From IMG/VR virus record IMGVR_UViG_2737471992_000006: a stretch of DNA of 45,327 nt; one strand, given 5' to 3'. This stretch comes from a virus (lineage: Duplodnaviria > Heunggongvirae > Uroviricota > Caudoviricetes). Each line of letters opens with the position of its first letter. Position 1 is the stretch's first letter. A program made the translations under genes and the position numbers. Positions 9,774 through 35,988 of the stretch are shown piece by piece. The notes beneath the pieces were generated by a model. The model had not been told where the DNA came from. It was given only the letters and a program-made list of their open reading frames with translations, and searched no databases.

Positions 9774-10421
9774 TCAGCGACCAATCACCACAACCTGACC
9801 ACCGTCCCCTTCGTCTGCCGTGCTGATCTCCTGAGAAACTACCCGCGACCCCACACGCATTTCACCGTACAGAACAGGCAAAACATTGCCCTGAGCAACC
9901 ATGTTATCCAGTGAGGAAAAATAGGTGTTCTGTTTGCCGTTATCTGTACTGGCTGCCGTGGACGTCCTGGCTTTCGGTGCCAGCATCTGCGCCACACCGC
10001 CCAGGATCATACTGGCCCCTGCCGCATACATGCCCGATACAGCCGCGGCACCCAGCCAGCCCACAGGGTTCCACCATGCCACCGCAATCAACGCCGCCCC
10101 CAGCACCACCTGAAACACACCGCCACTTTTAGCTCCCGCCAGACGCGGCACGATATGGATCACGGCACCATTTGCCAGCGGCTCATTAAGACGGGCAGAT
10201 AATTCGGTTTCACCTGCATCACGCCCGGCAATGCGCACCTGATACCAGCCGTCATTCAGTTTCTGACGAAACGCCGGGAGCTGTGTGGCCAGCGCCCGGA
10301 TGGCTTCGGCCCCCGTTTTCACACGAAGGTCGATGCGGCGGCCAAATCGTTGCAAATCCCCGTAAAGGCAGATGCGTGCCATGCCCGGTGACGCCAGAGG
10401 GAGTGTGTGCGTCGCTGCCAT
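9774..10421 (-). CDS. I: tail assembly protein I
   Basis: 215 aa, lambda gpI-like N- and C-termini (MAATHTLPLASPGMARICLYGDLQRF ... GGQVVVIGR). Confidence 0.85.
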   Translation of the reverse strand: MAATHTLPLASPGMARICLYGDLQRFGRRIDLRVKTGAEAIRALATQLPAFRQKLNDGWYQVRIAGRDAGETELSARLNEPLANGAVIHIVPRLAGAKSGGVFQVVLGAALIAVAWWNPVGWLGAAAVSGMYAAGASMILGGVAQMLAPKARTSTAASTDNGKQNTYFSSLDNMVAQGNVLPVLYGEMRVGSRVVSQEISTADEGDGGQVVVIGR

Positions 10422-11774: not shown

Positions 11775-12104
11775 CTATGCCACGACCTGTTCAAAATCTG
11801 CCGTTATGGTTACCCACAACGCTCCCACGCTTGCCGACCATTTACGACAAACCACCCTGATCGGCTTCCAGTCATAAGGTGGCGTCCACTGAAATGCGCG
11901 GACGCCACCGTGCCGTTCCAGAAAGGCTTTTAAAGATGGGTGTTCACATTTACGAACACGTATCGTCACGCTGTAAGTCGACAACTGGTTATTCAGTCCC
12001 GCCGCACGACGCTGTTCATAACCATCGCCCAGCTTCACTGTCACCACTTTCGGCTCTGATACCACATTCATATCCGGGCGCACTTTCCAGTGAAACGTCT
12101 CCAT
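11775..12104 (-). CDS. M: tail tip protein M
   Basis: 109 aa, lambda gpM-like; its start overlaps the H stop. Confidence 0.85.
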   Translation of the reverse strand: METFHWKVRPDMNVVSEPKVVTVKLGDGYEQRRAAGLNNQLSTYSVTIRVRKCEHPSLKAFLERHGGVRAFQWTPPYDWKPIRVVCRKWSASVGALWVTITADFEQVVA

Positions 12105-15100
12105 TACCGATATGCTCCACTTAACCGACCACCATCACGAGCCTGCTGTTGCATAAAGTCCGCTGCCGCTTTTTTCCCAAGGTCATAAACCACCTTCAGG
12201 GCAGCCGGACCTATCTGCCCGTTCGTGCCATCGTTATTGATCTCGATGTTGTACTGCGGGGCAAACATCGCCATACCTGAACCACCAATATCCGCCACAA
12301 CCCCCAGCTTACCGTCAGCACCACGACGCAGTGGCAGAATGGCTTCAGGTCCAGCTTCCCCCATCACACCCGCGCCTTTTGCAAAAGCAAAAAACGTCGG
12401 ACGGTTAACCACCGTGCCACTGTAGCGACTCAAATCAGCCGACTGATAAACACCGCCATCAGCATTGGCTACAAAATCAAAAGGCAGCGCGGAAGCAATG
12501 CCTTTTACCGCTTTCATTAAAGCTATCTGAGCCATGATTCTGGACATATCTGACAGCACAGAAGAAGTAAAAGATTTGAAATTGAGTTTGCCTGTAGTAC
12601 AGAATGTCGCCAGCCAGTCACTCATGCTACTGAACGCAGACGTGAACAACTGTTCCACTGTCCCGGCTGTGTTATCCGCATTCTCAGTGACATTCTGGAG
12701 TGCACGCAGGACTCCGTTTTTCCAGTTACCCTGAGCAATTTCAAGCTGTTGCCAGTAACGGCGATTCTCATTCAGTTGTCGGTTCAGGCTCTCCGTCAGC
12801 GCCTGCTCGGCCTTTCTGTAGTCATCCGTGTTATATGTCCCTTTCTGCTCACTATCCCGCCTCAACTGCTCCAGCTGTTGCTGGTATTTCTGGCGAAGAC
12901 TCAGTTGTACCTGATATCGCTGCCGCTGCTGATCACCCATACCAACCGTGGCGATATCCAGGTCATGTTGCTGACGCTGAGCGCGCTCTTCTTCAGCCAG
13001 TTGACTGGTCAGCTGAATTGTTTTTTTCTTCAGATCGTTGAGTGCCGTCTGTTTCTGAAGCTCCTGCTGTTTTACATCCAGCAGCGTCAGTGCCTGAATC
13101 AGTTCATCTTTACGGGCCAGCACACTCTTTTCATCTGCCGTCAGTTTTTTCCCGTCCAGATCGCTGATGCGCTGCTGCAGAGCCAGAAGCTGTTTATGCG
13201 CTTCTGTCATCTTTTCAGTGGCAATGCCTGCTGACTGTCTTGCAGCAGCAATCTGTCCTTCCACCTGTGCCTGTTGCTGACTGTACTGCAGCAATAACCG
13301 GGTGGCCTCATCATTACGGGTTTCGCGTGTTTTTTTCTTACCGGATGCCAGGGCTTTCTCGTAACGTTCATTTTCACGTTGTATCGCCGCATCCCTGACA
13401 GCCTGATCGGCGTACTGCATGGCATTAATACGCGCAATTTCACGCTGATGTCGTGCAGCTTCCGTTTCATTCATCCGGTTCAGTGCAGCATTTTCAGCAT
13501 TACGGCGTTTCTGTTGCTCCTGATAATTCCGCTCTGCCTGCTCTTTTGCATCCTTCAAATCCTTCTGGCGTTTTTTCTCCTGAAGATCGTTAAGACGCTG
13601 CTGATCGTATTCAACCTGAGAAGATGATGCCGTCCAGGGGAGTCTTTTCGCCCGCGACACTTTCTCCTGCAAAGTGGCAATCTGCGCATCCAGCGAATCT
13701 TCACGACCAATATTCATGGCCGCATCCCAGAACTGCTTCCACCAGTCAGACAAAGTTTGCAGCGTACTGCCCAGCGCATTGAGGTTATTATCAATATCCG
13801 CAGTACGCCGACCGGTTTCCTCTGCCAGTGCAGACATGGCTATCCGTGCCGCATCACTGGACCGCCCCTGCTCTCCAAGGACGCGTATCTGCTCAAGCTG
13901 AGTGGCAGTAAGAAAATGCAGCTCATTGTCCAGAGACTTCGCGGCATTTACAGGATCATCCTTCAGCCGCTTAAACTGATTTATGGTATCGCTGACCGAC
14001 TGGCCAACCGATCGCTCCATCTGTGCGGCAGCTCTCGCCACCATACCGATATCGTTTCCACGAAATGCACCACTCCCCACCACCTGAGCCAGCGCACCGG
14101 CTGCAGCATGTTGCGTGATACCATTCCCGGAAATAGCACGACTGAGCGTCCACAGCTGCCCGGCAGTGACTCCGGCATAATGCCCCGTCAGCGACAGCTG
14201 GCGGTTAAATTCTTCCCCCTCCTTCTGACCGTCATACCAGGCTTTACCCAGACCATAGACAGCCGCGGCAATACCGCCAATAACCCCGCCAAGCATCATG
14301 CCTTTCGGTGACATCAGTGTGTCTATCCACCCGGCACGGTTAGCCAGCGTTATTCCGGATCCCCTCAGCGCACCTAAATTTCCGCGGGCCAGTTCACCTA
14401 TCAGAACGCCTATCTCCTGACGGGCCGCTGCACTTTTCAGCCCCAGCGAATGCGTGGCTTTTCCTGCCTGCTCCATTTTGCGGATATACACTTCTGCAGC
14501 ACTGCTTACCCCCAACTGGGCAGCCTTAGCACGAAGCAACTCAGAAGAAGAAAGATTCTGGCGGGTTGCCTGCTCTTTAAGCTGACGGATAAACGCCACT
14601 TTCTGTCGGGTAGCCTCTTCCTCAGCCTGTGTAAGAACACGGGTTTTCGCCGTAACCTCAGAAATCAGCGCCAGATAATCCTGCTGACCAATCCCGCCAC
14701 TGTTTCTGGCCTGTCGGATCTGCTGCTGAATACGCTGTAATTCCTGCAGACCCGCACTGGCCTGTTTCACACTGTCAATCTGACGATAAAACGCAGCAGC
14801 CGCTTTATCCTGAGCCTCCGCCAGAGCCATGGCCTGCGCCTGTTCCTCGCGCATTTTCTGGCTCAGCGCCTCCATGCGCTGGCGGGTTTTCTCCACCTCG
14901 CGGGCCATGCGTTCATGAGCCTGTGCGTTCTTCTCCACCGTCTGCGCATGGACGGATGCGGCTGTTGCAGCCGAAGACGCCGCCTGCGTTGTCTGCCGGG
15001 CGGCCTGAGTCTGACGCTCCATAAAACGCTGCATACGGGCAGAAGACCGTTCTGCATCGCTGGCTGCACCATTCAGAAGGTTTTTGATACGGGGGATTTC

Positions 15101-15160
15101 ATTTTTAAACTCTGCCGCATCAATCCCCAAATCAATGACCAAGTTGGCTATCTGGTCCAT
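12104..15160 (-). CDS. H: tail tape measure protein H
   Basis: About 1018 aa, long coiled-coil, lambda gpH-like ends; ATG at 15160 with GGAGGTG Shine-Dalgarno (the ORF-track start at 15190 is probably too far upstream). Confidence 0.85.
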   Translation of the reverse strand: MDQIANLVIDLGIDAAEFKNEIPRIKNLLNGAASDAERSSARMQRFMERQTQAARQTTQAASSAATAASVHAQTVEKNAQAHERMAREVEKTRQRMEALSQKMREEQAQAMALAEAQDKAAAAFYRQIDSVKQASAGLQELQRIQQQIRQARNSGGIGQQDYLALISEVTAKTRVLTQAEEEATRQKVAFIRQLKEQATRQNLSSSELLRAKAAQLGVSSAAEVYIRKMEQAGKATHSLGLKSAAARQEIGVLIGELARGNLGALRGSGITLANRAGWIDTLMSPKGMMLGGVIGGIAAAVYGLGKAWYDGQKEGEEFNRQLSLTGHYAGVTAGQLWTLSRAISGNGITQHAAAGALAQVVGSGAFRGNDIGMVARAAAQMERSVGQSVSDTINQFKRLKDDPVNAAKSLDNELHFLTATQLEQIRVLGEQGRSSDAARIAMSALAEETGRRTADIDNNLNALGSTLQTLSDWWKQFWDAAMNIGREDSLDAQIATLQEKVSRAKRLPWTASSSQVEYDQQRLNDLQEKKRQKDLKDAKEQAERNYQEQQKRRNAENAALNRMNETEAARHQREIARINAMQYADQAVRDAAIQRENERYEKALASGKKKTRETRNDEATRLLLQYSQQQAQVEGQIAAARQSAGIATEKMTEAHKQLLALQQRISDLDGKKLTADEKSVLARKDELIQALTLLDVKQQELQKQTALNDLKKKTIQLTSQLAEEERAQRQQHDLDIATVGMGDQQRQRYQVQLSLRQKYQQQLEQLRRDSEQKGTYNTDDYRKAEQALTESLNRQLNENRRYWQQLEIAQGNWKNGVLRALQNVTENADNTAGTVEQLFTSAFSSMSDWLATFCTTGKLNFKSFTSSVLSDMSRIMAQIALMKAVKGIASALPFDFVANADGGVYQSADLSRYSGTVVNRPTFFAFAKGAGVMGEAGPEAILPLRRGADGKLGVVADIGGSGMAMFAPQYNIEINNDGTNGQIGPAALKVVYDLGKKAAADFMQQQARDGGRLSGAYR

Positions 15161-15475
15161 AACGCACACCTCCGGAAATACCTTCCCCAAGATGCATCAG
15201 TTCTTCGTCCGTTCGCTCCGGTATCCCGTTCTCTTCCGGTAAAAGGCTGAAATCAGCCACCGCAGCATCACTGCTGCCGGACACCATTCTCACGATCAAT
15301 GCCTTCAGCGAGGCAAACTGCGCATCCATCCACACATCACTGAAGCTCTGCATCCGGAAATAATCGCCCCACTCACCAAGCTCAGTGGCCGACATTTCCG
15401 ACAGCATCCGCCGCCAGTCTGCCCGCCGGAACTCCCGGGCAAGCCGCATGACAAACTGCATTTCCCGCGTCAGGA
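15132..15475 (-). CDS. T: T segment of the tail assembly chaperone G-T fusion (reached by -1 frameshift from G)
   Basis: The T frame is open from 15494 and is the -1 frame relative to G; lambda gpT-like sequence; it has no strong start of its own. Confidence 0.6.
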
Positions 15476-15859
15476 CTTTTCCGGCGTCAGCGCCTCATGC
15501 TCATCATCCCCGGCATTCTCAATGGCCCCCATACCGCTCAGCGACAGAACCATCTCCGCCCCCGCACCCAGGGCATCATACGACCATGTTGTAATAACGG
15601 ATGCGCAAAGCGTCTCTACATCCTTAGACTGATCCGCATTCCACAGTGAGCGGGAAACCAGCCAGGCATTGATATCCATCCCCATCCGCAGAAAAGCAAT
15701 CTGTCGTTCAGCCTCCGGCAGTTCTCCCTCACCGGCATCAAACTTTGCCGTTCGCTGCTGAACAAACGCCAGATATTCAATTCTCTGCAGCCCGGACAGC
15801 TCACTGAGCACCACGGACTGTTTTTCATAATTAAACGTGCCCTGTTTCAGAAACATCAT
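15470..15859 (-). CDS. G: tail assembly chaperone G
   Basis: 129 aa from the ATG at 15859 (GGTGGAG Shine-Dalgarno); lambda gpG-like (MFLK..., SELS.LQRIE.LA). Confidence 0.8.
   Translation of the reverse strand: MMFLKQGTFNYEKQSVVLSELSGLQRIEYLAFVQQRTAKFDAGEGELPEAERQIAFLRMGMDINAWLVSRSLWNADQSKDVETLCASVITTWSYDALGAGAEMVLSLSGMGAIENAGDDEHEALTPEKS
15476..15482 (-). other. putative -1 programmed ribosomal frameshift site (G GAA AAG in the G frame)
   Basis: Heptamer ggaaaag sits 2 codons before the G stop, in the 22-nt window where both frames are open; it is one base off lambda's G GGA AAG. Confidence 0.5.
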
Positions 15860-15916
15860 GTTCTCCACCTGCAAAAAAGCCCCGGATAGCCGGGGCAAAT
15901 GATGAGTATCGTCCTG

Positions 15917-16660
15917 TTAACCTGCGGCGCTGACAGTCACCGCAGCCACAGCCACAAAATTCCCGTCAGCGGTCATGCCCACAATGCTGACACTGCCCTG
16001 CTTCACGCCTTTCACCGTGGCTACAAGCCCGTTCAGGGTCACCGTGGCAGTCTGTGGATCTGACGAATGCACACTGATCGCTTTGTCACTGGCTCCGTCA
16101 GGTTTTACTGTAAAGGTCAGCGTGGTGGTTGCTCCCACTTTTACACTGGCAGATGCCGGTGTCACCGTCAGCCCGGTAACGCTCACTGTTTCAGTGCCTT
16201 CCTCTGCCAGATACGGACGCCCCACACCGCTGATTTTCACAGTGCGGGTCATCACGTCTTTTGAGGCAATGGTTTTACCCAGTGAACTCAGCCAGCCACG
16301 GAAAACATCAACAGTACCGTTGGGATATTTGATACGAAACGCGCAGACTTCACCGGAGTCGAACAACTGAACCAGTTTTTTCTGCCCGCTGTCACCCGGA
16401 CGCCAGGCCAGCGTCGCCGAAGTATCACCGACTGATTTCTGCCCCTGGGTTGTCGTTTTCCAGTCTGCATCTTCATCATCGAGATAAGTATCATCTTCTG
16501 CATCAGCGGTCATTTCGCCAGGTTGCAGATCCTTCACCATCGCAAGACGCAGCCAGTCAGTGTCCGACAAAGGGTTCGCAAATGCGTCGCCGTTGCCGGT
16601 ATACATCCAGAACGTCGTCCCCGCACCTTTCGTCTTTGCCAGTGGATTTGGTGTGGTCAT
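15917..16660 (-). CDS. V: major tail protein V with C-terminal Ig-like domain
   Basis: 247 aa from the ATG at 16660 (AGGAGGTG Shine-Dalgarno); C-terminal Thr/Val-rich Ig-like segment as in lambda gpV. Confidence 0.85.
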   Translation of the reverse strand: MTTPNPLAKTKGAGTTFWMYTGNGDAFANPLSDTDWLRLAMVKDLQPGEMTADAEDDTYLDDEDADWKTTTQGQKSVGDTSATLAWRPGDSGQKKLVQLFDSGEVCAFRIKYPNGTVDVFRGWLSSLGKTIASKDVMTRTVKISGVGRPYLAEEGTETVSVTGLTVTPASASVKVGATTTLTFTVKPDGASDKAISVHSSDPQTATVTLNGLVATVKGVKQGSVSIVGMTADGNFVAVAAVTVSAAG

Positions 16661-18336: not shown

Positions 18337-20295
18337 TTACGCCGTACATTTCACCAGACCGCGGTGATCAACTGGCGCGACACCGGCGTCAATACGCACT
18401 TTCGTTGTCACGCCATCCACACTGAAGCCCTCCATCTGATCAATATATGGCGTATCCACACCGTTGAGATAAGCCACTTCAATCGTATCGGAGCCTTTGG
18501 ACGCAGCCAGGTAGAAAGTGGTCTGGCTGTTATCATCAAGACGAGGCTCTGCAATAACGGTCGCAAAATCTTTCACCGGGTTAATAATACCGGCGTTAAT
18601 GTCAGCCCCCTTGACACTTGAGGAGCGAATGACCTGGTTAGCAACAGACTCCATCGCCGTCGGTACCAGTACGAACGCAGGACGAATATTCAGATGACGC
18701 TCCCCCTCTTTCTGAACACGCATCAACTGGCGGGCTTTATCCAGCGATGCCACGTCCATTGCAGCGCTCTCCAGTACGTTTGCATGTTTCGCTTTATCGA
18801 ACAGACTTACATTATCTGTGGAGATTTTCGGGTTAGACGTCAGAATGGCATAAACCAGATCGGCAATAGTGGATTTCGCCGCACGGCCCAGTTTCATCGG
18901 GACATCGGTCAGCATATTCAGATCATCATTGATAATGGCCTGACGGGTGATACTGAACAGCTCGCCATAGGTCGCCAGTGCAATAGTGGCCTGTTTATCT
19001 CCGGTGGTGACGTATTTATATTCCGCCCCTTCACGCACCTGACGCAGAGCACTGAAGCCCCCCATACCCACACGATGGGCAATTTTAAAATCAGACAACT
19101 GACCTTTCCGCGTCCACTGTTCATAGGTTTCAGGGGCATCTTCCCAGCCCTGCAGAATGGCTTTGTTCGCAACATCCAGCAGAATATTACCGAAGTCAGA
19201 CGTACTGTGTGTGAACGCCGCACCGACCATCTGCATCGGGTTATAACTGGAAACCCCAATCCCCCGTTCAGTCAGTGACATACGAGCATATTCACGCAGG
19301 GTCATCCCGTTGTAGACATTATCACGTTCGGTTTTTTCAAATCCGGCACGCGCCATCAGCGCCTGGCGGATCCCGTCCCCCACAAAATTACCGTTACCGG
19401 CATAAATATGAGCCGGGGTATTTTTATTGGATGGCGTGGACTCGCGCCCCATCTCGTTCAACAGCTTTTCGCGGGCCTGCTCCAGCGAACATTCAGGATC
19501 GGCAAGACACTGAGCCTGCAGCGTCTGATAACGCCCGCCAAACATGGCAAACAAATCATTAATACCGTTTACACGCGCTTTTTGCTCTGCCAGTACCTGC
19601 GCACGGATACTGTTTTCATCCACCACGGGTGCTGCTGCCTGCACTGGCGTCCGGGAGGCTGCAGGTTCATTATCCTGTACGCGTGGAGCACTGTTGCGTG
19701 GCGGAGTAATCATGTTTCGAATGGATTCCGGCATCTTTTTAAATTCCTCTGTACGTTTTGACTGAATACATGCCATTGCCTTAACGGCTGGCGTTACCTG
19801 ATCAGCAAATCCATGTGCCAGACATTCGGCACCGGACATCCAGGTCTCATCCGCCAGCATGGCAGCAATTTCATCGGTGGTTTTCCCGGTTTTCTGTGCA
19901 TAAGCGGGTAACAGAACCGCCTCAACCTTATCGAGCAGGTCGGCATAGGTGCGCATGTCCTCCGCATCACCGCCCGTAAAGCCAAATGGTTTATGAATCA
20001 TCATGAAGGTGTTTTCCGGCATAATGACCGGGTTTCCCACCATCGCAATGACCGACGCCATTGACGCCGCCACACCGTCGACATAAACGGTAATGGACGC
20101 ACCATGTGTTTTCAGCGCATTAAAAATGGCGATGCCTTCAAAAACATCGCCACCCGGTGAATTAATATGGAGATTAATGTGGGTGATATCGCCCAGTGCA
20201 TTCAGATCACTGATAAACTGCTTCGCTGTAACACCCCAGAAACCAATCTCGTCATAAATATAAATATCCGCGTCACTCTGGTGACCAGCCTGCAT
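18337..20295 (-). CDS. prohead protease (ClpP/S49-like) - scaffold - major capsid protein fusion
   Basis: 652 aa from the ATG at 20295, 14 nt after the portal stop; N-terminal ClpP-like protease region (INSPGGDVFEG ... MIHKP), an Ala/Pro/Gln-rich linker, and a C-terminal ~330-aa capsid-like domain. Confidence 0.8.
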   Translation of the reverse strand: MQAGHQSDADIYIYDEIGFWGVTAKQFISDLNALGDITHINLHINSPGGDVFEGIAIFNALKTHGASITVYVDGVAASMASVIAMVGNPVIMPENTFMMIHKPFGFTGGDAEDMRTYADLLDKVEAVLLPAYAQKTGKTTDEIAAMLADETWMSGAECLAHGFADQVTPAVKAMACIQSKRTEEFKKMPESIRNMITPPRNSAPRVQDNEPAASRTPVQAAAPVVDENSIRAQVLAEQKARVNGINDLFAMFGGRYQTLQAQCLADPECSLEQAREKLLNEMGRESTPSNKNTPAHIYAGNGNFVGDGIRQALMARAGFEKTERDNVYNGMTLREYARMSLTERGIGVSSYNPMQMVGAAFTHSTSDFGNILLDVANKAILQGWEDAPETYEQWTRKGQLSDFKIAHRVGMGGFSALRQVREGAEYKYVTTGDKQATIALATYGELFSITRQAIINDDLNMLTDVPMKLGRAAKSTIADLVYAILTSNPKISTDNVSLFDKAKHANVLESAAMDVASLDKARQLMRVQKEGERHLNIRPAFVLVPTAMESVANQVIRSSSVKGADINAGIINPVKDFATVIAEPRLDDNSQTTFYLAASKGSDTIEVAYLNGVDTPYIDQMEGFSVDGVTTKVRIDAGVAPVDHRGLVKCTA

Positions 20296-20308
20296 CCTGA
20301 ACCAGGAA

Positions 20309-21817
20309 TTATTCTTCGGACTGGTCGTCGGTGTGCTGCGGCTCCTGTCGTTTCGTTGCGGCACTGCTGCCTCCTTTATCACTGGCCGGATCGGTATCAA
20401 ATACCAGATCCAGCTTGCGGTTTTCATCAATTTCGGCCTTGCGCCGACGTTTGACATCATCCGGATTACGACCACCAGCACGTACCCAGTCTGATTCTGT
20501 CGCCGCTCCACCACGAATCTGGATTTTCCAGGCCTCAGCCTCCTTAACAGGGTCAATCCACGGCATCACTGGTCCGGAATACACCGCGGTATACAGTGAA
20601 GAACGGTCAAGATCGCGGGGTAGCCTGATAACACCGGATGCCACAGCCTGTTTCAGCCAGGCACGATACATCGGGCGGGTGACGGCACCAATAAACCAGT
20701 CCTGCAGGATCAGGTAGCCATCAGTAGACTCAACCAGTTCCTGACGCTGGGCGCTGTAAGTGCCGTTATAGTTGCGTGCCGTACTGGAAAAACTCAGACG
20801 ACTGCCCGCCGCCACGGCACGCAACTGACCATTACGAAAAGTTTCAAGGTTAGGATTGGGACGATCCGACTTCACCATTCCGATTTCTTCGCCGGGTTTC
20901 AGATCGTCGTAAATAATGCCTGGCTGAATGGTAAGCTCGCGTTCATTCTCCTTGCTGCCATTACCATCCGGTTCATAGCTCTGCCCGTCGCCTTTCCGGA
21001 TGTACATCCCCAGAGCAGCGGCGATCCTTGCTGCAGTCAGCTCAGAATCTTCATACTCTTTCAGGGCACTGAGGCGGATCAGCACACCGGACAACAAAGA
21101 CGTCCCGCGCATCTGGTGCAGACGGCGAACAAATTTAAGATGCAGCATTCGCTCTGCATCCACTTCTTTGGTTTCCATCTGCCGCCCGGATACGGGACGG
21201 CTTTTATACACCAGATATTTTTCGGGACGCCCCCAGTCATCAACAAACACGCCCTGATTCAGCCTGTTGCTCTCATCACTGGTCATGGGAATAAAGTCCG
21301 GCTCGAGCGCCTCCAGCCAGAAATGAACACCGGCAGAAGGCGTCAGGCTGTTTATGCGCCCGGAAACCATCTGGGCAAACACCTCACCATCGCGCAGCCA
21401 GGTACGCAGCATCAGACGTTCCAGCATCGGACGGGTAAACTGCCCGGTGACTTCCGGACTGACAGACCATTCACTCCATCGGGTGCGTATCTCCGCTGCC
21501 AGATCACGGGCAATGGCCCCATTGCGTAATACCGGATGTGGCTCGACAATAATCCCGTTTTTCCCCACCACCCGTTCTTCCAGCTTGTCAAATACACCAA
21601 TAACCAGATCGTGGTTGTTATCAAGGTAACGGGCCTGCTCACGTAACGACACGGCCCCGTACTGGCTTAACTGGTCGGCAGTTCGGTTTTCCCGCCGGGC
21701 TTTGTGTGTCCGCGTCGTTTTTACGGCCTCATAAGCCTGGATCACCGCACGGGAACGCAGCCTTGCCGCTTTCCATCCTGGTGAAAAAACGCCAATCACA
21801 TCATCAAGAATTGCCAT
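20309..21817 (-). CDS. portal protein
   Basis: 502 aa from the ATG at 21817, which overlaps the gpW stop (TGATG); size and position between W and the protease/capsid gene; acidic C-terminus. Confidence 0.8.
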   Translation of the reverse strand: MAILDDVIGVFSPGWKAARLRSRAVIQAYEAVKTTRTHKARRENRTADQLSQYGAVSLREQARYLDNNHDLVIGVFDKLEERVVGKNGIIVEPHPVLRNGAIARDLAAEIRTRWSEWSVSPEVTGQFTRPMLERLMLRTWLRDGEVFAQMVSGRINSLTPSAGVHFWLEALEPDFIPMTSDESNRLNQGVFVDDWGRPEKYLVYKSRPVSGRQMETKEVDAERMLHLKFVRRLHQMRGTSLLSGVLIRLSALKEYEDSELTAARIAAALGMYIRKGDGQSYEPDGNGSKENERELTIQPGIIYDDLKPGEEIGMVKSDRPNPNLETFRNGQLRAVAAGSRLSFSSTARNYNGTYSAQRQELVESTDGYLILQDWFIGAVTRPMYRAWLKQAVASGVIRLPRDLDRSSLYTAVYSGPVMPWIDPVKEAEAWKIQIRGGAATESDWVRAGGRNPDDVKRRRKAEIDENRKLDLVFDTDPASDKGGSSAATKRQEPQHTDDQSEE

Positions 21818-35159: not shown

Positions 35160-35988
35160 GACGATGCCCTCCGCTGATATTCAGGAGACGGTGAATATGA
35201 AAATTAGCCTTATCCGCCAGACGAATACGTTCAGCCTGCAAGTTAAGAAGGGTTTCTACCAAAACCTGATGCGCCTGCGGATCCGAAAGAGTTACCTTGC
35301 GCAGAGCACGTAGTGCAGTTGTTACATAACTGAGTTTATGTAAGTCTTCATCATTCAGACGAGTGAGGGCTGGGACAGTAGCCATGATGGCAGCCTCCTT
35401 GATCGGTGAAATACTTCCATCACCGGAAACGCCAATTTCGCTGGTGGTGAACTGAACGGGGTTGGCGTAACCGGTGATCAAGGAAACCGGCGCATCTTTC
35501 GATGCCCCCGCCCAGCCCACCATAACTTTGATGTGAGCAAATGCGGACGATAAAAAAGACGCTGGCGCGTCATATATCGCCTTGATCAATTCCAGGACGC
35601 CAATCCCGGCACCCGCTTTATAAGGTGCCTGAACAGTGTAACGTCCCGGAATGGCAGAATCAATGTGCTGGTGGTCCTTCACACTCAACAAAATCACGCC
35701 TGAATTTCCACAAAGGACTAAAGCACTCATGCGGGTAGTCTTTGCGAAGATAGATAACGCGCTGTGTTTCTGGCTCCCAACGAATAACATGAACATAAAG
35801 TCCTCTTCTGTCACGAAACCAGCGGTTAAGTTCCTGCACAACTCGCCCCCCACAGTCAGGTAAAGTTCTCTGTGGTTACTTACAGCCAGGTGATTTGGTA
35901 ATCTGCATTCATGCCGTAACAACAGGTGTTCAGCGACGCTGGCCACCAGCTGTTGCGACAAACGGTTATTTGCCGTTAAACTGTTCAT
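35152..35988 (-). CDS. hypothetical 278-aa protein in the early-right operon
   Basis: ATG overlaps the upstream stop (ATGA); no recognisable motif (no Walker A box). Confidence 0.6.
   Translation of the reverse strand: MNSLTANNRLSQQLVASVAEHLLLRHECRLPNHLAVSNHRELYLTVGGELCRNLTAGFVTEEDFMFMLFVGSQKHSALSIFAKTTRMSALVLCGNSGVILLSVKDHQHIDSAIPGRYTVQAPYKAGAGIGVLELIKAIYDAPASFLSSAFAHIKVMVGWAGASKDAPVSLITGYANPVQFTTSEIGVSGDGSISPIKEAAIMATVPALTRLNDEDLHKLSYVTTALRALRKVTLSDPQAHQVLVETLLNLQAERIRLADKANFHIHRLLNISGGHRHA

Follow-up and report, generated by a model that had tools for sequence, protein, structure and literature searches.

The tail module in this stretch of viral DNA raises the question of how its genes G and T are joined: whether this occurs by programmed -1 ribosomal frameshifting of the kind that makes the G and GT proteins of phage lambda and, if so, how a heptamer one base different from that of lambda would serve as the slip site. 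The G/GT frameshift as such is a classic and conserved feature of tailed phages, and GGAAAAG is already on record as a slip site in N15 and LLS. We have analysed the locus within the whole stretch of 45,327 nt (the window), together with its relatives in public collections; the features are compiled in Table 1.

The module lies on the minus strand and follows lambda's order Z-U-V-G-T-H-M, with a Pfam match for each gene. The G product falls into the Phage_TAC_2 family, which is that of lambda gpG, and is annotated as gpG in the public record as well; PGAP places its start at 15856, one codon downstream of 15859. Gene V is the upstream neighbour of G, and gene H is the downstream neighbour of T, the start of H (ATG 15160) overlapping the end of the T frame by 29 nt (15132..15160). 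In the mEp460 record, H begins at an alternative GTG, 15169. Upstream of V we identified U, Z, genes for a head-tail protein and a cement protein, and a fusion of ClpP protease and capsid protein; M was found downstream of H. The protease-capsid fusion gene is an ORF of 739 aa (18337..20556, minus strand), which contains a ClpP-type protease domain (residues 95-255) and a phage capsid domain (residues 441-736). The Pfam matches and this synteny bear out the assignment, made previously from the letters of the DNA, of a lambda-type G/GT tail-chaperone pair with -1 frameshift. The predicted GT fusion comprises 242 aa, with the junction ...ALTPEK/VLTREMQF... (the slash marks the point of frame change).

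Table 1 Features of the G/T locus and its neighbours, in coordinates of the window
Feature	Position	Strand	Particulars	Basis
Gene V, major tail tube protein with C-terminal Ig-like domain	15917..16660	minus		Phage_TTP_12 (1e-66), Big_2 (6e-13)
GC-rich hairpin followed by T6 run	15879..15896	minus	between V stop and G start	terminator annotated at this position in mEp460, Ayreon, N15 and HK225
Gene G, tail assembly chaperone	15859..15470	minus	129 aa, then TGA at 15472..15470	Pfam Phage_TAC_2 (2e-39)
Stretch with both frames (G and T) open	15473..15494	minus	22 nt; only here can G be joined to T by a -1 shift	
Slippery heptamer G GAA AAG	15476..15482	minus	0 frame GAA (Glu, P site) and AAG (Lys, A site); -1 frame GGA and AAA	
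T segment, -1 frame after the shift	15132..15476	minus	GTC at 15476..15474 to stop at 15134..15132; 114 aa	Pfam Phage_tail_T (5e-15)
ATG of the annotated free-standing 109-aa 'T'	15459..15461	minus	not conserved in relatives	public annotations
Gene H, tape measure protein	12104..15160	minus		Pfam TMP_2, Tape_meas_lam_C, TMP_4; annotation

The hairpin and T run between V and G look like an intrinsic terminator or attenuator, and a rho-independent terminator or stem-loop is annotated at this position in mEp460, Ayreon, N15 and HK225. This element could attenuate the expression of G, T and H relative to V. In another part of the window, two Rfam matches above the gathering score were found on the minus strand, a C4 antisense RNA (35440..35527, 82 bits) and, adjacent to it, the Hfq-binding small RNA isrK (35552..35628, 64 bits); they are presumably part of a prophage regulatory region.

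Gene G ends with the codons GAG GCG CTG ACG CCG GAA AAG TCC TGA. The -1 frame has stops at 15503..15501 and, for the last time, at 15497..15495; it is open from 15494 onwards and ends at the stop of T. The frame stops therefore define the overlap exactly, and its length of 22 nt agrees with the earlier note, which had also proposed GGAAAAG as the only slip candidate there, one base away from lambda's G GGA AAG and with a middle-position mismatch after re-pairing in the P site. These points stand. The remaining 0-frame codons of the overlap (GCG, CTG, ACG, CCG and TCC) are all unable to re-pair one base back, the difference from lambda is a single transition at the homologous position, and tRNA-Glu on GGA would form a second-position G.U pair. 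The description of the heptamer as non-canonical requires some qualification. It is correct with respect to the strict X XXY YYZ rule, from which the site departs in its first three bases (G G A), the change from GAA to GGA altering the middle codon position; the A-site half of the motif is retained, AAG and AAA being read by the single tRNA-Lys of E. coli. It is not correct for the family, where G GAA AAG is the majority form in our sample and is annotated in N15 and LLS. The heptamer works like a tandem slippery site, though outside the strict motif.

By itself GGAAAAG is not rare: the window has 13 copies on both strands against 6.9 expected. Its signal comes from position and from conservation across relatives; arithmetic from the window count gives a chance of about 1e-3 for an in-register copy inside the 22-nt overlap.

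To follow the heptamer through the family, we surveyed 205 loci from viral-contig and genome-contig collections; the 105 distinct G proteins that they encode fall into 41, 17 and 8 clusters at 90%, 70% and 50% identity, respectively. When viral contigs were scanned with one divergent G protein at a time, few or no loci were returned, so that an alignment-based scan was needed. With the heptamer scored as the G G[A/G]A AAG that stands in register and nearest ahead of the G stop, this pattern was always present. GGAAAAG was found in 36 of the 41 clusters and GGGAAAG in the remaining 5; the corresponding numbers were 14 and 3 at 70% identity, and 6 and 2 at 50%. Across the 41 clusters, heptamer positions 1, 2, 4, 5, 6 and 7 are 100% conserved and position 3 is divided between A (88%) and G (12%), whereas the 30 nt upstream, in an alignment anchored on the heptamer, are poorly conserved.

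The codon ahead of GAA varies among CCG, GCG, ACG, GTG and CTG, i.e., it stands for five amino acids and always ends in G. Using the codon usage of the same genes as the synonymous-site background and the 17 clusters at 70% identity, we estimated P = 4e-8 for the fixed G at position 1 (background G of 0.35-0.37 at four-fold sites), P = 1.4e-4 for the fixed GAA over GAG at position 4 (GAA being 0.53 of Glu codons) and P = 2.6e-8 for the fixed AAG over AAA at position 7 (AAG being 0.36 of Lys codons); these values treat clusters as independent, which they are not entirely, so that significance is somewhat overstated and should be taken as an upper bound.

In Gifsy-1, Gifsy-2 and Fels-1, the DNA is only 68-70% identical here and the acidic C-terminus of G has a different sequence, yet the string CCGGAAAAG(T/C)CCTGA is kept. 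The records of Gifsy-1 and Gifsy-2, which share the same CCGGAAAAGTCCTGA, describe T as a product of translational frameshifting. Lambda has GCG GGA AAG at the aligned position, and in both phages G-K-V comes next in the T frame. A neighbour-joining tree of the predicted GT fusions placed G GGA AAG in two separate clades, one of lambda and E. albertii and the other of Symbiopectobacterium and Serratia, each surrounded by G GAA AAG clades. One heptamer has therefore replaced the other on two or more occasions, and the two are interchangeable. More distant variants occupy the homologous junction in other phages: A AAA AAG (as TCA AAA AAG) in VT1-Sakai and Stx1 phages of the named-phage set, and C CCA AAA (as GAC CCA AAA GGT TAA) in Vibrio phages K245 and Val-yong3. 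These variants indicate that the slip of the A-site tRNA-Lys onto AAA is a constant feature of the family. The G/T overlap of Val-yong3 is only 10 nt long. We also encountered G/T regions identical to lambda or similar to mEp460 in assemblies labelled Bacillota, Pseudomonas, Kitasatospora, Shewanella, Paenibacillus and others; most of the contigs concerned have low coverage, and these sequences look like contamination with lambda or E. coli DNA.

The conservation bears directly on which of the tRNAs would slip. The earlier note had suggested that slippage may rely mainly on the A-site tRNA-Lys, and in its extreme form, a hexanucleotide site of the NNA AAG type, tRNA-Lys alone would re-pair from AAG to AAA while the P-site tRNA-Glu just releases the third base. 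The sequence does fit NNA AAG as GAA AAG; in E. coli no tetramer is more shift-prone than A_AA.G (Sharma 2014), NNA_AAG motifs support -1 shifting (Atkins 2016, summarising Licznar 2003), and the move from GAA to GGA carries a second-position mismatch. However, the base 5' of GAA is G in 41 of 41 clusters, at a position that is four-fold degenerate in all five codons found there. As it is always G at a synonymous site, the 5' base matters, unlike in the NNA AAG hexanucleotide motif. Furthermore, the other heptamers found at this site (G GGA AAG, A AAA AAG and C CCA AAA) all permit re-pairing in the P site, and tetramer motifs stay at background without a strong downstream pseudoknot (Sharma 2014), while no stimulator was found here. 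Slippage of tRNA-Lys alone is thus disfavoured, and we consider it unlikely. Slippage of both tRNAs fits the data better, because the G at position 1 is invariant and this base would matter only if the P-site anticodon re-pairs.

In all relatives the conserved reading frame changes at the heptamer. Upstream, stops in the -1 frame come as near as 9 nt before it, and downstream, 0-frame stops occur from 10 nt past its first base, which leaves for the shift an interval, shared across the family, that extends 9 nt to either side of the heptamer's first base. From the first codon past the heptamer, the relatives share the -1 frame peptide (V/A)-L-x-x-E-L-x-F-x-x-x-L-A-R-E-F. T itself has no conserved start: the first ATG of its frame stands at codon +7, +11, +17 or +25, and the one at +25 sits inside the conserved LAREF..DWR core.

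These observations also weigh on the proposal that no frameshift takes place and that T is a free-standing protein of 109 aa, translated from ATG 15461, perhaps by termination-reinitiation past the G stop 8 nt upstream. Among the records examined, that of mEp460 and the PGAP RefSeq entries of E. coli split the module in this way, into G and a separate T from ATG 15461, and the 109-aa 'T' forms a cluster of 1148 members in a collection of 15 billion protein sequences. Against this, the ATG is not conserved, the first one in relatives being at +11, +17 or +25; the residues of the T frame between heptamer and ATG are conserved (V/A-L-x-x-E-L); a properly spaced Shine-Dalgarno (SD) sequence is absent before ATG 15461, where GGGAA abuts the ATG; and lambda T is known solely as part of gpGT. 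We judge this explanation to be quite improbable as a replacement of the frameshift, although some free T could also arise by reinitiation in the phage's own clade, where the ATG lies 8 nt past the G stop. A fusion by another route, whether by shifting elsewhere or by slippage of RNA polymerase along the A4 run, has nothing specific in its favour beyond the short A run inside the heptamer and is highly improbable, as the fusion is confined to 15494..15473 where no other codon re-pairs in the -1 frame, four A are far fewer than in known transcriptional slippage tracts, and an A-run mechanism leaves the invariant G1 and G7 unexplained.

Among the closest known systems is lambda G/GT itself (Levin, Hendrix & Casjens 1993; Xu, Hendrix & Duda 2004, 2013, 2014). 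Both systems share the Pfam families of G and T, the order V-G-T-H, the homologous position of the shift site (experimentally defined as G GGA AAG in lambda) and the A-site slip of tRNA-Lys from AAG to AAA, and lambda likewise lacks a conserved stimulatory structure. They differ in heptamer position 3, which is G in lambda and A here, and consequently in the P site, where tRNA-Gly on GGA re-pairs on GGG in lambda whereas tRNA-Glu on GAA would re-pair on GGA with a middle G.U. Furthermore, the G stop follows one codon past the heptamer here as opposed to five codons in lambda, and the G proteins are 33% identical.

Identical heptamers are known from other phages. In N15 (genes 14/15, NC_001901), GGAAAAG stands in register and is annotated as a misc_feature at 10027..10033, 'slippery sequence for -1 translational frameshift'; the phi80-like phage LLS (genes 11/12, PQ299149) carries a 'minus-one programmed translational frameshift site GGAAAAG' and a joined CDS. 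As far as we found, both annotations rest on sequence analysis. In N15 and LLS, the G stop lies 15 nt past the heptamer compared with 3 nt here, and the T parts are about 42-45% identical. Phages phi80, HK225 and mEp043 also have GGAAAAG at the homologous site.

The A AAA AAG site of E. coli dnaX uses the same A-site slip of tRNA-Lys from AAG to AAA, and its variant A GAA AAG, with 20% frameshifting, shares the P-site GAA. However, dnaX requires an SD-like element ahead of its heptamer and a stem-loop behind it, and neither is detectable or conserved here. Sites of similar design have been described further afield: G_GA N_NNN 'intermediate' shift sites occur in umbraviruses, dianthoviruses, mesoniviruses and insect flaviviruses (Atkins 2016), PRFect (2024) includes a 'twofour' (two-plus-four) class among its motifs, and tRNA-Glu re-binds GGA via G.U in the GGGGGAA tail-chaperone sites of actinophages (PRFect 2024). 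The umbravirus-type and actinophage sites operate on eukaryotic ribosomes or in actinobacterial hosts and with other A-site codons; they are alike in mechanism and not homologous. In PEMV (G_GAU_UUU_UGG_UAG) a stop also follows one codon downstream (Atkins 2016). As a required element of this kind, the stop one codon past our heptamer was rejected: it is present here, but in most clades the stop lies 15 nt downstream.

Stimulatory elements were sought on both sides of the heptamer. The minimum free energy (MFE) fold of the 106 nt after it is ordinary (z = -1.24), as is that of a 101-nt stretch spanning it (z = -0.80), and for 17 diverse relatives RNAalifold returned a consensus of only -2.25 kcal/mol (covariation term 0.05), i.e., no conserved structure. 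A downstream stimulatory structure was rejected on the basis of these z scores and the alignment fold. A GAGG lies 10 nt upstream of the heptamer, with -5.6 kcal/mol against the anti-SD, a value equalled by 26% of windows of the same gene; for the family as a whole, the anti-SD duplex energies of the upstream windows do not differ significantly from the gene background (p = 0.07). The GAGG is indistinguishable from the background of a gene rich in acidic codons, and an SD-like stimulator is not supported.

How strongly such a site might shift can be approached from published measurements. In the dnaX context in vivo, frameshifting reached 81% for A AAA AAG, 57% for G GGA AAG, 20% for A GAA AAG and 5% for A AGA AAG (data of Tsuchihashi & Brown 1992, tabulated in Supplementary Table 3 of Bock 2019), a set that does not include G GAA AAG but from which some shifting at this heptamer is to be expected. 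The free-energy terms of Bock 2019 are +3.8 kJ/mol for P3 A to G (tRNA-Gly), -4.6 kJ/mol for A3 G to A (tRNA-Lys) and +8.5 kJ/mol for the combined change of P1 G.C to A.C and P2 A.U to G.U; they reproduce the figures of 57% and about 18%. As G GAA AAG is without the P1 mismatch, it would be expected between these two values, roughly 0.3-1 times lambda's heptamer by our own arithmetic. A literature search for GGAAAAG as a slippery sequence returned Peng 2019 only, where AUG GAA AAG, translated with reconstituted E. coli components and no stimulators, was the "less slippery" control. There, whatever the EF-G concentration, G GAA AAG was read mainly in the 0 frame, whereas at low EF-G the -1 product of G GGA AAG exceeded 70%; G GAA AAG shifted more with EF-G domain-4 mutants. 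No stimulatory element that could make up for such a low slipperiness was detected at the present site. In the searchable literature we found no measurement of GGAAAAG in its natural context. Judging from these heptamer measurements, the site is probably weaker than lambda's, and the suggestion that its frameshift efficiency differs from that of lambda is plausible. A weaker site is compatible with a lambda-type system, which needs only about one GT per 30 G.

With the anatomy of the overlap, the homology to lambda, the frame switch at the heptamer and its conservation as described above, we hold with high confidence that the site is a programmed -1 ribosomal frameshift of the lambda G/GT type. 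We infer that the GT fusion is made and that re-pairing involves both tRNAs; the yield of the fusion would be low, probably on a par with the few percent of lambda or lower. Most ribosomes would reach the TGA of G and release the 129-aa chaperone. A small fraction, with GAA (tRNA-Glu) in the P site and AAG (tRNA-Lys) in the A site, would slip back by one base. [quoted passage not shown] Translation would then go on in the T frame and yield the 242-aa G-T fusion (...TPEK/VLTRE...), in which the G part is predicted to bind the tape measure protein and the T part to recruit the tail tube protein. A conserved RNA stimulator would not be involved, as in lambda.

Phages mEp460, cdtI, Tritos and Ayreon share the region at 98-100% identity, as do prophages in the 1846 of 5426 complete E. 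coli genomes in which the module is present. An exact look-up of the predicted 242-aa fusion found it absent from the 15-billion-sequence protein collection. The missing GT annotation looks like a systematic gap, as the module is found in roughly one complete E. coli genome in three. We found no protein-level evidence of the fusion, either for this phage or for any G GAA AAG site; nor did the searchable literature hold a record of the predominance of GGAAAAG in the family or of the synonymous-site evidence at position 1.

The known picture of G/GT frameshifting is left unchanged by these results, and their value lies in annotation and in a simple reporter question. We see the case as evenly balanced that G GAA AAG, rather than the textbook G GGA AAG of lambda, is the prevalent and possibly ancestral slip site of lambda-type G/T modules in Enterobacterales, which is selected as a unit, works with a G.U pair of the P-site tRNA-Glu and may lower the GT:G ratio compared with lambda. 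If this is true, roughly one in three complete E. coli genomes would carry, as a programmed frameshift site of natural origin, the heptamer that has served in biophysics as a "non-slippery" control. Programs that look for frameshift sites by the X XXY YYZ rule alone will overlook the majority slip site of the family sample surveyed. From the comparison of natural sequences, the invariant G at position 1 provides evidence that useful re-pairing of a P-site tRNA through a middle G.U is possible in bacteria, and G GAA AAG and G GGA AAG offer an interchangeable natural pair for the study of how the GT:G ratio is tuned.
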